A DNA stretch of 35,326 bases from Parcubacteria group bacterium Gr01-1014_13 (GCA_007376295.1 VMGB01000001.1:248643-283968); one strand, 5' to 3'; shown: positions 21,955 to 24,685, counted from the first letter of the stretch. Notes: generated by a model not told the origin, from the sequence alone. Program-made: numbers and translations.

Positions 21955-22746
21955 CTAGTACAGGTCGCAGCGCTTGTCCCATGTACCGCCGGCCTGGTTG
22001 GGCTCGGTGGCCGGATGGTCAGGCAATCGCTTGCACCCTGGCGTAGTCCAACGAGGGACATCAGCCGTGGCACCTGGCAACCAAACACCGGATACAGAAG
22101 CCGGCACAACGTTGAGTCCAGCCATCGACTTGCTTGGGCAAGTGATGGCACAGTCGTGATCCCCACCAGTCACCGTCGTTCCGACGGTAATGTTGTGGTT
22201 CAGTGTCCCCTGCTCGTTCCAGCCTTCGCAGTGATCGATGTCATTGACAGCGGCCGCGGTGAAGGTGAGGTAGAGCCCGTGACAAACAGTGGTCGTATAG
22301 CTACACGTTCCTGTGGAAGTGTTGCAAACATCGTTAGTCCAAGCGTTACCATCGTTGCAGTCATCATCGCAGGTGCATCCGGTCGGAGCGGGATTGACCG
22401 TCACAGTCACCGAGCCTTCAGCCGATCCACCGGGACCGTCGCAGTGCAAGGTGTAGGTAAAGCCCTCCTGGATGTTGGTAACCGACCAGATATCGGATTC
22501 CAGAGGAACGTGCGTAGTACCGTCCGCACCGAGGCTCCAACACGAAGTCGCGTTGGTATAGACCCATGTGATCACGGTACTCCCACCTGCTGTGACGGTC
22601 GGGGGATTGGCTGTCCCAGTCACGGTCGGTGCTGGCTGCCCAGCGTCGCCACCTGTCACGTCTTGAGACGTGACTCCGTCTTCGATGCAGGCTGTCATTA
22701 CCATGACACTACACAGAACGAACATCGTCGCGATCGTCTTCTTCAT
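21955..22746 (-). CDS. Putative lipoprotein with Ig/PKD-like and Cys-rich domains
   Basis: Signal MKKTIATMFVLCSVMVMTA|C; TITW..TNATSC...YTLHCDGPGG..SVTVTV Ig-like block; CDDDCNDGNAWTNDVC motif; SD AAGGAG. Confidence 0.8.
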   Translation of the reverse strand: MKKTIATMFVLCSVMVMTACIEDGVTSQDVTGGDAGQPAPTVTGTANPPTVTAGGSTVITWVYTNATSCWSLGADGTTHVPLESDIWSVTNIQEGFTYTLHCDGPGGSAEGSVTVTVNPAPTGCTCDDDCNDGNAWTNDVCNTSTGTCSYTTTVCHGLYLTFTAAAVNDIDHCEGWNEQGTLNHNITVGTTVTGGDHDCAITCPSKSMAGLNVVPASVSGVWLPGATADVPRWTTPGCKRLPDHPATEPNQAGGTWDKRCDLY

Positions 22747-22919
22747 TTTCCTTCTCCTTCTTCTAGTTTTTGGGTTTATCCCAAGAAATTTTGTCTTATC
22801 CCGAGCATTCGAGATAAGGTACCGCCGGATTTTACATCCGTTATCACCACTTCAAATGGAAACGATGATAATTAGACGCTCCGACTCAATCATTTTAATG
22901 ATTAAGTCGGAGGTTGTCC

Positions 22920-23549
22920 CTAGAACAGATAACTGAGCGTGAGTCCTTGGTAGGACACCAGCTTTGTTTCTCTATCCCCAGGGACAGGGTAGGTGGCCGC
23001 TCCGAGTCCAGCTGAGGCTTCCACCGAAAAGTGGTTGATCTCGAACTGGAGATGAAACGATCCGCCGACAATTCTTTCACTGGCCTGCTCCTTGGGATGA
23101 CCAAGGACTTGGGTGCAGTAGAGTAGATCAGTTCCGAGACCGATGCTGAAATGCTTGCCGAGGCTTCGCATCGCAGCCAGTCCGGAATCGAACGCTACAT
23201 CACCCCAACCTTTCTTGCAGCTACCTGCCCGAAAGGTTGCGTGTAGCCTCCACGACGAGTCGGCATATCCGATTTCGCCGATGAGGCCAGCAGTAGGAGA
23301 AAGGTATGTCCGGGCAGGAAAACCCACCCCAACACTGAACCCGCCACGCAGAGCGAGATTGCCTGCTGTCGGGGAGAACTCGTGGATTCGCTGTACAACG
23401 TACGGCACTTCCACGACTACATCTTCTCCGACGCCAGGTACCTTGACCACGGTGTCCTTGGGAACCTCTGGGGTTCCGTTGGGCGGGGTTTCGGCAAAGA
23501 CGATACTCGTCATCATCAGAAACATGAACGTGAAAGCAACCTTCTTCAT
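22920..23549 (-). CDS. Putative 8-stranded outer-membrane beta-barrel protein
   Basis: Sec signal ending VFA; eight amphipathic Gly-rich strands; C-terminus GLTLSYLF. Confidence 0.68.
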   Translation of the reverse strand: MKKVAFTFMFLMMTSIVFAETPPNGTPEVPKDTVVKVPGVGEDVVVEVPYVVQRIHEFSPTAGNLALRGGFSVGVGFPARTYLSPTAGLIGEIGYADSSWRLHATFRAGSCKKGWGDVAFDSGLAAMRSLGKHFSIGLGTDLLYCTQVLGHPKEQASERIVGGSFHLQFEINHFSVEASAGLGAATYPVPGDRETKLVSYQGLTLSYLF

Positions 23550-23709
23550 CTTTTCTCTTCCTTTCGCCTTTGGTAGGCATTGTCAATTGTAAAAAACGAT
23601 CTACTTCACCTCCTTAAAATATTTTCTACTTTAGGAAGATGAAGATGGATCGTGCGAGTTTCCTATACTCGCACGGGTTAGACTGGTCCCGCACAATGCG
23701 GAACAACAG

Positions 23710-24456
23710 TTAGCGACGCATGGACCGTGGCTTGTACACGTCGATGTAGACGGGAACAGGGCGGTAGATGACGTTGCGTGTCGGTTGTGGCTGCTGATGA
23801 CCAACATCGACTGGAGCGGGCGGTTTCTTGTCTTCGGTCGGTAGCGGGTCCTTGCCAACACTGATGGCGATACGCGTCTCTTGAATCTTCTTCTCAATTC
23901 GCGTGATGCGCCAGTTGGAACCCGCGACCTTTTTTTCCACCTCGGTCTTGTCGGCCTTGGTGGCGTCCAATCCGTTGACCTTGTCGGCCAGCGCATCGAC
24001 GGTCCCGATGATTTTCTCCACATTGGAGATCATCGGGTCGACCTTCTTGTTCAGATCATCGACCCCCTTCTTGAGCCCAGCGATGTCGTCCTTGTTGGCC
24101 TTGTTGTCCTTCTGAAGGCTCATGATGTCGGCCTCCAGAGACGCGCCGTCCTTCTTCAGCTCACTCACTCCTTGGCAGGAATAGAGCATGAGAGCCAGCG
24201 CTGCCAGCATGCCCATGACCACAATGAGGGTCTTGAGCGGGCCAGACCATCGACTCCGCGGCTTGTCGCCGCTAGTCGTGGCCAGATCGTCGTCGGGCGT
24301 TCGGGGAACGCGCGGCTCGGATCCAGCTCTGGGAAACGGCGGAACTTCGCTCAGCTTCAGATTCGCGTCGGGAGGAAGCGGTTGGGTGATCTGAGTGACC
24401 ACCTTGGCTTCCGGACCCTTGTTCTTATCATTCGTCGTATCCTCGGTTCCATTCAT
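23710..24456 (-). CDS. Membrane-anchored coiled-coil protein
   Basis: Start ATG 24456 after GAGGAG; Pro-rich N-terminus, one TM ending LYSC, long heptad region, Pro-rich tail. Confidence 0.78.
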   Translation of the reverse strand: MNGTEDTTNDKNKGPEAKVVTQITQPLPPDANLKLSEVPPFPRAGSEPRVPRTPDDDLATTSGDKPRSRWSGPLKTLIVVMGMLAALALMLYSCQGVSELKKDGASLEADIMSLQKDNKANKDDIAGLKKGVDDLNKKVDPMISNVEKIIGTVDALADKVNGLDATKADKTEVEKKVAGSNWRITRIEKKIQETRIAISVGKDPLPTEDKKPPAPVDVGHQQPQPTRNVIYRPVPVYIDVYKPRSMRR

Positions 24457-24550
24457 CTCTGTCTCCTCGTTTAGAGCGTTATTTCTCATCTACCAACATG
24501 GCAGATGAGGAGTGTTTTCATTAGAACCACCAGAATTGATGGTCCAAATT

Positions 24551-24652
24551 AAAAACATAAAACCTCTTTGGAGAGAGGTTTATCATTGGGTATTAATCGT
24601 TAAGGCTCAGTAATGTACTCTCTCAAACACTACTTGGCTTTTATTAACGACT
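24551..24652 (-). ncRNA. Candidate structured leader/attenuator or sRNA
   Basis: Begins just downstream of a consensus promoter; long hairpin followed by a terminator-like hairpin and U-rich tract. Confidence 0.45.
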
Positions 24653-24656
24653 AAAT

Positions 24657-24685
24657 ACTATATCACAAAGCTAATCATTTGTCAA
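24657..24685 (-). promoter_or_regulatory. sigma70 promoter of the GC-rich island
   Basis: TTGACA-17 nt-TATAGT with TGn extension. Confidence 0.75.

Follow-up and report, generated by a model that had tools for sequence, protein, structure and literature searches.

In mycoplasmas, loci of the Vlp, Vsp and Vsa type join constant 5' regions, made up of promoter, leader and signal peptide, to divergent and modular mature parts. Diderm bacteria carry small outer-membrane protein (OMP) barrels such as NspA, OmpX/Ail, OmpW and the N-terminal domains of OmpA and OprF (PF13505), and the Rz/Rz1 spanins of phages pair an anchored coiled coil with a lipoprotein. Patescibacteria form a large share of bacterial diversity, and their cell contact is mostly obscure outside a few cultured Saccharibacteria. 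Here we describe a GC-rich (guanine- and cytosine-rich) island of three exported-protein genes, A, B and C, at positions 21955-24685 of a 35,326-nucleotide (nt) stretch of DNA from Parcubacteria group bacterium Gr01-1014_13 (GCA_007376295.1, VMGB01000001.1:248643-283968), which is referred to below as the window. We read the island, with moderate confidence, as an old, vertically inherited and fast-evolving surface cassette held at one site between a Wzy_C-type gene and the gene of a giant protein, where it would serve as an attachment module.

The closest case from the candidate phyla radiation (CPR) is a hypervariable Gracilibacterium gene. It reportedly encodes an extracellular membrane-anchored protein with Pro/Thr/Asp repeats, breaks assemblies and is proposed to act in partner attachment (PMC6851277). 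The island is alike in its CPR host, its hypervariability and its assembly breaks, and the linkers of protein C are Pro/Asp/Ala-rich; the Gracilibacterium case, however, is a single repeat gene varying within a population, whereas the island has several genes, keeps its position across genera, encodes a barrel and shows extreme GC content at third codon positions (GC3). Compared with the small diderm barrels, protein B is alike in its signal peptide and size and, as predicted, in eight long amphipathic strands with alternating faces and structural alignment Z-scores of 13-14.8; many of its family members also have an aromatic C-terminus. It differs in its lack of a sequence-family match, its very short loops and its conserved Cys pair, and it belongs to a lineage without detected Omp85/BamA, LptD, LpxC or TolC, in which its gene always stands beside those for a coiled-coil anchor and a lipoprotein. 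Like the mycoplasma loci, the island is a cluster of surface (lipo)proteins with conserved 5' regions and variable bodies, but no phase-variable repeat or invertible element was seen in it, its gene bodies are GC-rich, and it includes a barrel and a coiled-coil anchor. With the spanins it shares the anchored coiled coil and the lipoprotein, and it differs in the absence of a phage context, a larger lipoprotein, an extra barrel gene and non-overlapping genes. A full-text literature search returned no description of such a GC-rich island or barrel in Patescibacteria, Parcubacteria or the CPR, and for hypervariable surface proteins it returned the Gracilibacteria case only.

Composition, site and age of the island

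The GC content of positions 21955-24685 is 53.4% (0.534), compared to 0.392 for positions 1-21954 and 0.401 for positions 24686-35326. Bins of 500 nt between 22001 and 24500 have values of 0.51-0.58 and the adjoining bins 0.37-0.42. The genome of the window (G000) consists of 940 kb (0.94 Mb) in 9 contigs with a completeness score of 100%; among its 3676 sliding 2.5-kb windows (mean 0.401, standard deviation 0.025) the five GC-richest all lie within the island, with a maximum of 0.547. The enrichment pointed out in the preliminary description therefore holds, and its spot counts of 41/60 (24241-24300), 29/60 (24001-24060) and 14/60 (12481-12540) were reproduced exactly. The island consists of three open reading frames (ORFs), all on the minus strand: gene A (23710-24489, 259 amino acids (aa)), gene B (22920-23549, 209 aa) and gene C (21955-22746, 263 aa). 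Their GC3 is 0.72, 0.60 and 0.65, respectively, versus 0.29-0.505 in 19 other genes of the window tested, and the spacers within the island have a GC content of 0.36-0.43. As first proposed, the three co-oriented genes stand behind one promoter (24657-24685, minus strand), a near-consensus site with TTGACA, a spacing of 17 nt and TG-TATAGT, that is, 11 of 12 positions and an extended -10 element. Two related genomes, when aligned with it, have identical hexamers; across the region as a whole, the number of promoter-like sites is at chance level (4 found, 4.2 expected).

No integrase or transposase family was found among the 33 window ORFs scanned, and the sole tRNA-like gene of the window is a transfer-messenger RNA (tmRNA) gene at 33405-33797, about 8.7 kb from the island, in keeping with the earlier remark that no integrase, transposase or tRNA flanks the genes. 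A blastn search of the island against its own genome returned the island itself and one 48-nt inverted match only, and hence no flanking repeats. The locus thus lacks the integrase or transposase, the tRNA or tmRNA attachment site and the flanking direct repeats by which genomic islands are recognised. Its presence in close relatives is not patchy either, as the site is occupied in 14 of the 15 loci from the genus and in 8 of the 10 from other genera.

These loci come from a synteny survey in which the flanking Wzy_C gene (20301-21671, plus strand; O-antigen-ligase-like, PF04932, E 1.6e-22) was located in relatives and the DNA past its 3' end was read (25 loci, 8 genera). Immediately beyond Wzy, on its 3' side, 22 of the 25 loci, across 8 genera of the family, have a GC-rich island. 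Within the genus, the Wzy gene was found in 15 of 16 genomes; the adjoining DNA is GC-rich at 14 of these 15 loci (500-nt bins 0.50-0.73 versus 0.31-0.47 in the flanks), and the fifteenth contig stops 44 nt past the gene. Across the family, a Wzy orthologue (E<=1e-40) was present in 18 of 61 sampled genomes and 11 of 41 genera. The 10 loci of other genera (seven genera) include 8 with an island of 3.5-10.5 kb or its start before the contig end, one contig that stops 129 nt past Wzy and one locus with no island within 945 nt. On the other side, homologues of the giant protein (1559-1871 aa) bound the island in 9 further loci. G006, G003, G010 and G011 have the genes in the same succession (giant gene, A-like, B-like, C-like and then Wzy), with extra lipoproteins in two of them; co-occurrence of the three genes elsewhere, which had been suggested as a check, is thus found in at least four other genomes.

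The islands of distant genomes (GC3 0.7-0.99) contain three recurring kinds of ORF: membrane-anchored proteins with low-complexity or coiled-coil sequence, beta-type-rich proteins with a signal peptide and, in many cases, an aromatic C-terminus, and lipoproteins. In a scan of 46 proteins, the adhesin-type modules found in the lipoproteins are Big_7, Big_9, Cadherin-like, Calx-beta, Disintegrin, Dicty_CTDC repeats, the MopE motif, DUF4215 and Stig1. The B family was confidently identified in 9 genomes of the genus and one genome of a second genus, every time inside an island; a narrower B profile matched 7 of 201 genomes of the order. Eleven further matches of the B profile were discounted (E 2.5e-4 to 6e-3, frames of 104-1064 aa, mostly about 1000 aa). 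A pattern scan of a genome collection returned 2 loci and a metagenome scan with C returned 4 short contigs, both scans being limited by their short peptide patterns. The related loci that were fetched all have AT-rich flanks, and no contig among them is GC-rich throughout, although the four metagenome contigs are short; no relatives of B were found on viral contigs. The family's fastest-evolving exported proteins have a defined, conserved site, which makes it a place to look for determinants of host range and phage receptors.

The assembly across the island is continuous. In the probable source run a single, independent 7.9-kb contig spans 21810-29500 at a depth of 20.9, and the left junction is tiled by overlapping contigs at depths of 22.8 and 22.3, next to a flank at 21.6; identical pieces of the island are present at 2-4x in two other runs of the same study. 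Coverage at the junctions, which the preliminary description had singled out as a possible sign of chimerism, is therefore even (20.9-22.8).

Over 11 genomes, B and Wzy vary together in pairwise identity (Spearman 0.46, reached by 6 of 2000 permutations), with the same nearest neighbours for both proteins. Between G000, G014 and G006 the identities are 51-60% for B and 72-76% for Wzy, and between G008 and G009, the closest species pair, they are 77% and 90%. For four island genes of this pair the synonymous divergence (dS) is 0.19-0.67 and the ratio of nonsynonymous to synonymous divergence (dN/dS) 0.09-0.36, compared to 0.40 and 0.11 for Wzy; the dN of the B-like gene is 0.147 versus 0.042 for Wzy (3.5x). 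Because B co-diverges with Wzy and the dS of the island genes brackets that of the flank, the island and its flanks are of the same age; purifying selection acts on the island genes, whose proteins diverge 2-4x faster than their neighbours. Capture from a GC-rich diderm host, if understood as a recent event, is contradicted by this co-divergence and matching dS, by the occupation of the same site in 22 of 25 loci and by the near-native spacers. Nor was any donor family found among 5.8 billion or 1.84 billion proteins.

The GC enrichment is confined to coding sequence. In 11 islands, 41 genes have a mean GC3 of 0.82 (up to 0.99), compared to a GC content of 0.46 in 30 spacers (10.7 kb). The 90 nt before the start codons have a GC content of 0.48, and the GC3 of codons 2-25 is already 0.75. 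Cytosine and guanine at third positions (C3, G3) are both raised, and adenine (A3) falls to 0.00-0.13. Lys is encoded by AAG at a frequency of 0.90 in the island, as opposed to AAA at 0.79 genome-wide, and Leu by CTC/CTG instead of TTA/TTG. The genes of EF-Tu (GC3 0.35) and of ribosomal proteins (0.21-0.36) make the opposite synonymous choices. Since the GC-rich coding is confined to the reading frame, runs against the codons of highly expressed genes and persists across genera, it is not the scar of a recent transfer and must be actively maintained. Coding-only enrichment of this kind, with a GC3 of up to 0.99 in genomes of about 40% GC, across genera and against the preferred codons, contradicts the standard model of recent transfer and amelioration, and another force is therefore called for.

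Several candidates for it were rejected. Translational selection for high expression is ruled out by the opposite codon preference of the EF-Tu and ribosomal-protein genes. A shortage of tRNAs for GC-ending codons was discarded in view of 51 tRNA genes, many of them with CNN or GNN anticodons, and a signature of A-to-G editing in view of the joint rise of C3 and G3. No part of the island recurs in the genome, so there is no template repeat for targeting by a diversity-generating retroelement. Biased gene conversion that keeps the GC content high is less likely, as the visibly homogenised parts, the 5' cassettes, are the AT-rich ones. In a crude gene set of G000, 36 of 878 ORFs, scattered over the genome, have a GC3 >0.52 (genome mean 0.37), for example C3:935-1702, C3:67309-68514, C4:27999-28613, C4:119753-120175, C6:91045-92448 and C6:110686-112056, and several of them have an N-terminus like that of a lipoprotein or secreted protein. 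Genes with GC-rich coding and native signals hence seem to form a class in this genome that extends beyond the island; the island differs from the scattered genes in being the largest cluster and in encoding an exported three-part module.

The spacers themselves have near-native composition, with a GC content of 0.425 between A and B (23550-23709) and 0.40 between B and C (22747-22919, including the Shine-Dalgarno (SD) sequence of C; both read on the minus strand). The A-B spacer is partly conserved with its counterpart in G003 (72% over 114 nt). In other species the upstream region and the first 60 coding bases are duplicated between adjacent island genes, with identities of 100% over 510 nt in G013, 99% over 359 nt in G008, 90-96% in G005, 91% over 138 nt in G011 and 79% over 185 nt in G042. 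The island spacers are not junk but conserved and duplicated cassettes of promoter, leader and signal peptide.

The three proteins and the envelope of the lineage

Protein B starts with a signal peptide, read from the sequence as MKKVAFTFMFLMMTSIVFA/ET; this region aligns in 20 of the 21 sequences of the family, the N-terminus being missing from P0012. Next comes a linker of some 45 residues, disordered and rich in Pro and Val, and residues 65-208 are predicted to form a barrel of eight antiparallel strands of 10-17 residues each, with ...LTLSYLF at the C-terminus. The AlphaFold2 (AF2) model, built with 21 sequences, has a mean pLDDT (predicted local distance difference test) of 77.7, and the means of ten-residue blocks are 73-97 from residue 61 on. 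All loops of the model are short (2-7 residues). The 10 Foldseek matches with E<=0.001 are without exception barrels of the outer membrane (Ail, OmpW, OmpX, NspA), with a probability of 1.0. The best matches in VIA, an exhaustive structural alignment against 48,161 chains, are NspA (Z 14.8; 139 residues, 3.0 A), a Thermus OMP (14.3), the N-terminal domain of OprF (14.3) and OmpA (14.0), followed by a Legionella porin (13.9), CarO (13.1) and a designed transmembrane barrel (12.9). An ESM Atlas model and feature search led to OMP clusters as well (PF13505, OmpA, Ail_Lom and the TP0733 family; TM 0.50-0.63 for the first three). Along the strands of B, a face rich in Leu, Phe, Val and Ile (mean hydropathy +1.54, n=56) alternates with one rich in Gly and charged residues (-0.59, n=57), an alternation that corresponds to the inside-out pattern of OmpA/OmpX-type barrels.

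The B family carries a conserved Cys pair and is small. There are 18 relatives, B included, among 5.8 billion proteins, and a profile search gave 31 among 1.84 billion representatives, none with a Pfam domain. The source name of one homologue, and the only organism name in a cluster look-up of ten B-family proteins, is 'Patescibacteria group bacterium'. Of the features expected of the OMP_b-brl family, B has the signal peptide and, by prediction, the closed eight-stranded amphipathic barrel; a match to the sequence model and an organism with an outer membrane and the beta-barrel assembly machinery (BAM) are lacking. Because of these two, B is not filed as a member of that family, and as far as prediction goes it is an OmpX/NspA-type barrel.

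Protein C is a lipoprotein with the lipobox ...MTAC, a predicted Ig/PKD-like (immunoglobulin-like) domain that covers roughly residues 36-122, an insert rich in Cys and a conserved tip domain of some 110 residues with WDKRCDLY at its end. Its Cys20 is invariant in 15 sequences, with A or G at position -1, and the genome encodes both Lgt (124.6 bits) and LspA (71.4 bits), as monoderms generally do. Thirteen relatives of C were found. Common to them are the lipobox Cys, a linker rich in Pro, Asp and Ala, a variable number of Ig-like repeats (from none to several) and a strongly conserved C-terminal domain, and their alignment has 15 invariant columns, including 6 Cys, mostly in the C-terminal domain of about 110 residues. 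This tip domain is present in two further genera, and a search for longer proteins that bear it found none, which is weak evidence. The AF2 model of C (mean pLDDT 67.4) resolves the Ig/PKD-like domain, which aligns with PKD, CBM and Ig domains at Z up to 9.5, but not the tip. In the Foldseek and VIA lists all rows fell to the Ig domain, and for the tip the ESM Atlas gave structure rows with TM <0.45 only and no usable feature match. A complex prediction of B (56-209) with the C tip (140-263), using both alignments, scored 0.00, which has no bearing on binding either way.

Protein A is read from its sequence as a bitopic membrane protein: a Pro-rich N-terminal part in the cytoplasm leads to an anchor near residues 86-106, which is followed by a coiled coil of roughly 100 residues and a tail rich in Pro and Val. 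Its true start is probably the second ATG, at 24456, which is preceded by an SD sequence. Five aligned homologues have the same layout at 16-25% identity. Pfam gives weak coiled-coil matches below the cut-off only (DUF4795/DUF948), and PHROG gives Rz-like spanin matches over the anchor and coiled coil (phrog_739, E 7e-5; another at 2e-3), a similarity at the level of coiled coils. Nothing above the cut-off was found in Pfam, NCBIfam or PHROGs for A, B, C, the giant protein or the 183-aa ORF described below. The preliminary description had ascribed purine-rich SD-like starts and export signals to all three genes. The former precede B, C and the second ATG of A; as to the latter, B has a signal peptide and C a lipobox Cys, but A has an internal membrane anchor in place of a signal peptide.

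Omp85/BamA was not found in G000 or in any of 100 family genomes (41 genera), and the same search matched in 7 diderm controls. LptD, LpxC, TolC-type OEP and PF13505 are likewise without a match in the 100%-complete G000, and ribosomal protein L30 was not found in it; control genomes matched in each of these searches. The absence of L30 is a typical trait of the candidate phyla radiation. Of the genes that had been named for checking, bamA and lptD were not found and lgt and lspA are present, and the genome is not that of a diderm with BamA. The idea of a module of beta-barrel, lipoprotein and coiled coil in a lineage that lacks BAM is borne out by the fold predictions for B, the lipobox of C and the architecture of A; of the earlier interpretation the recent capture falls away, and a role in or on a Gram-negative host's envelope stays an inference. 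OMP-type barrels without BAM bear on whether such a protein can function without an outer membrane of its own, or in someone else's.

Readings of the island

In the reading that we favour, the three genes follow a sigma-70-type promoter and a conserved structured leader. A is predicted to be anchored in the cytoplasmic membrane, with its coiled coil of about 100 residues; C has a flexible linker, one or more predicted Ig/PKD-like spacer domains and a conserved disulfide-rich tip; and both would project from the cell's own membrane. The island genes swap adhesin-type modules and, within an island, carry duplicated and homogenised 5' cassettes. Together A, B and C would form a surface device for attachment or contact. 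B would be its lipid-inserting element; since the lineage has no BAM, lipopolysaccharide (LPS) or outer membrane, its insertion would be independent of BAM and would most plausibly target a foreign lipid layer, for example a partner cell's outer membrane. The fast divergence of the proteins may then reflect partner specificity or escape from phages.

Several points weigh against this reading. Soluble eight-stranded barrels come close behind the OMP matches of B (Z up to 12.5 versus 12.9-14.8), the fold is a prediction, and the sequence cannot decide which strand face points outward. Only 9 of the 21 family members end in Phe; 10 have a Trp followed by 2-4 more residues (e.g. W-G-x) and 2 end otherwise. 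B reaches no OMP model of Pfam, nor any Pfam family at E<=0.01, and PF13505 has no match in the genome at E<=1. Confident members of the B family are restricted to 2 genera, and elsewhere in the family the sameness is one of architecture and position rather than of demonstrated homology. GC content at the first and second codon positions (GC1, GC2) is raised as well, which resembles a general GC pressure more than codon selection, and to our knowledge no mechanism for a coding-only GC pressure has been described. A search of public runs for expression found no RNA run that carries the stretch. The partnership of the three proteins, including any binding to one another, is our inference. Finally, many Parcubacteria may be free-living or attached to archaea, and published titles and abstracts point both ways.

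The main rival, possible but on balance doubtful, is that A, B and C form a module of the cell's own envelope in the zone of the wall or S-layer, with B as a soluble or wall-associated barrel that binds lipids or other ligands. Such a role would suit the soluble barrels that align with the B model at Z 8-12.5 (de novo designs, lipoprotein barrels of the TbpB/HpuA/NHBA type, LpqH and YceI), the short loops, the lack of a BAM to fold a membrane barrel and the surface-polysaccharide genes nearby (Wzy_C, a Wzz-like gene and GHL15). It is opposed by the structural comparisons: the seven top-ranked VIA alignments, like every one of the 10 Foldseek matches with E<=0.001, are to membrane barrels, and the Atlas results agree with them. 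The long strands of 10-17 residues with one hydrophobic and one Gly/charged face, and the many aromatic C-termini, argue against it as well.

We consider it unlikely that the site is a hot spot of recurrent import, which repeatedly captures coding segments from a GC-rich donor, perhaps a host, behind AT-rich resident cassettes. The codon positions resemble those of a genome of about 65% GC (GC1 about 0.6, GC2 about 0.5, GC3 0.8-0.99, C3 > G3), some spacers reach 0.51-0.59 GC, and conserved 5' cassettes joined to unrelated gene bodies suit capture. The Cys-rich lipoprotein modules DUF4215, MopE motif and Disintegrin also fit, being common in the GC-rich Myxococcota. Against repeated import stand the co-divergence of B with Wzy and the dS of the island genes, which matches the flank. 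Relatives are few and no donor is visible (B 18 of 5.8 billion and 31 of 1.84 billion; C 13), the related loci that were fetched are all AT-rich in their flanks, and the GC-rich codon use starts within the signal-peptide codons.

A bolder idea, to which we give only slight credence, is that the products are made for a GC-rich diderm partner. B would be delivered into the partner's outer membrane, folding spontaneously or via the partner's BAM, and would there be an anchor or receptor for the C tip and A; the coding GC would be kept by exchange with the partner's gene pool. Tir and intimin offer an analogy for B as a self-supplied receptor. In its boldest form, at best very improbable, the cassette genes would be expressed by the partner's translation machinery after transfer of DNA or RNA, for which T-DNA is the analogy.

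A single recent transfer from a GC-rich diderm into this genome would account for the atypical GC content, the OMP-like fold and the sharp boundaries, but it is highly improbable: the synteny survey, with the site occupied in 22 of 25 loci and 8 genera, contradicts it, as do the spacers and signals of native composition, the lack of an integrase, tRNA or flanking repeat, the co-divergence and the matching dS. Hardly more can be said for a spanin-like or prophage cassette for lysis or fusion, also highly improbable, with A as an Rz-type i-spanin and C as an o-spanin-like lipoprotein. The weak PHROG matches of A and the shared architecture of anchored coiled coil and lipoprotein speak for it. 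Such matches are expected of any coiled coil, however; A is extended at its N-terminus by some 85 cytoplasmic residues, and C, with 263 aa, Ig and tip domains and B between it and A, is not the short protein that defines an o-spanin. No holin, endolysin or phage family lies nearby, no viral contig matched, and the chromosomal position is constant. A chimera, in assembly or binning, of foreign GC-rich DNA with a CPR contig has a negligible chance, since the breaks of several related assemblies inside the island are outweighed by the even depth of 20.9-22.8, the one contig over 21810-29500 and the same arrangement in many independent assemblies, including the one-contig genome G042.

Leader, flanking genes and assembly observations

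Between the promoter and gene A lies a structured 5' leader of about 200 nt (24457-24656, minus strand). Its fold has a minimum free energy of -59.2 kcal/mol and a z-score of -5.7, with none of 200 shuffles as stable, and it includes a terminator-like hairpin with a T-run at 24581-24560. It shares long invariant runs with the leaders of G006 and G014, despite a protein A that is only about 25% identical. Leader matches by blastn are confined to three close relatives (L007, L020, L023). No Rfam family matched the leader, and positions 21500-25500 gave three chance-level matches only (E 0.34-0.95). The leader is a candidate attenuator or regulatory RNA, perhaps an undescribed cis-regulator. Two hairpins 3' of the stop codon of C (21871-21945, minus strand) probably mark the end of the transcript. 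The first, at 21930-21945, came from a scan; the second, a G+C-rich stem followed by a T-run with arms at about 21927-21917 and 21892-21882, was recognised by eye and is absent from the scan output.

The giant protein that borders the island on the other side (25417-29427, minus strand) has 1336 aa and is Lys/Glu-rich, above all in its N-terminal half; hydrophobic stretches occupy its central region, and its C-terminal part is conserved. It may functionally be part of the same surface apparatus. Between it and the island lies an orphan ORF of 183 aa (24788-25339, minus strand; GC 0.47, GC3 0.505) with one hydrophobic N-terminal stretch. It is of intermediate composition, had no tblastn match in the 24 related loci searched, and could be the island's fourth gene, specific to this species.

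In the probable source run, low-depth contigs depart from the window at 23587 and 23621, both in the A-B spacer, with loose ends on both sides, which hints at a co-occurring strain with a different arrangement at this spacer. Among the related loci, the contigs of L011, L012, L013, L016, L017, L031, L035 and L036 stop inside the island or at its edge. Islands are probably under-represented in, or lost from, binned genomes, and because many assemblies break inside the island, surveys of such genomes probably under-report it. A run of N at about 8700-8800 of L009 lies within the gene of a lipoprotein with tandemly repeated Ig-like domains in the G010 island, where the bordering repeat units are near-identical. 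Two records with the same CPR-type locus, an island between Wzy and the giant gene, carry different labels, 'uncultured Gammaproteobacteria bacterium' (L022) and 'Patescibacteria group bacterium'; one of the two is probably wrong.

Elsewhere in G000, an RVT_1 gene lies at C9:2388-2999 (L040), on a 6.4-kb contig that also has GC3-rich ORFs at 506-1249 (0.73) and 5416-6387 (0.57). In the window itself, smpB is directly followed by the tmRNA gene (32961-33797, plus strand; tmRNA 33405-33797, tag ANLFTKAKVAVANLFGQRAFAPVMA), an ordinary smpB-ssrA pair.

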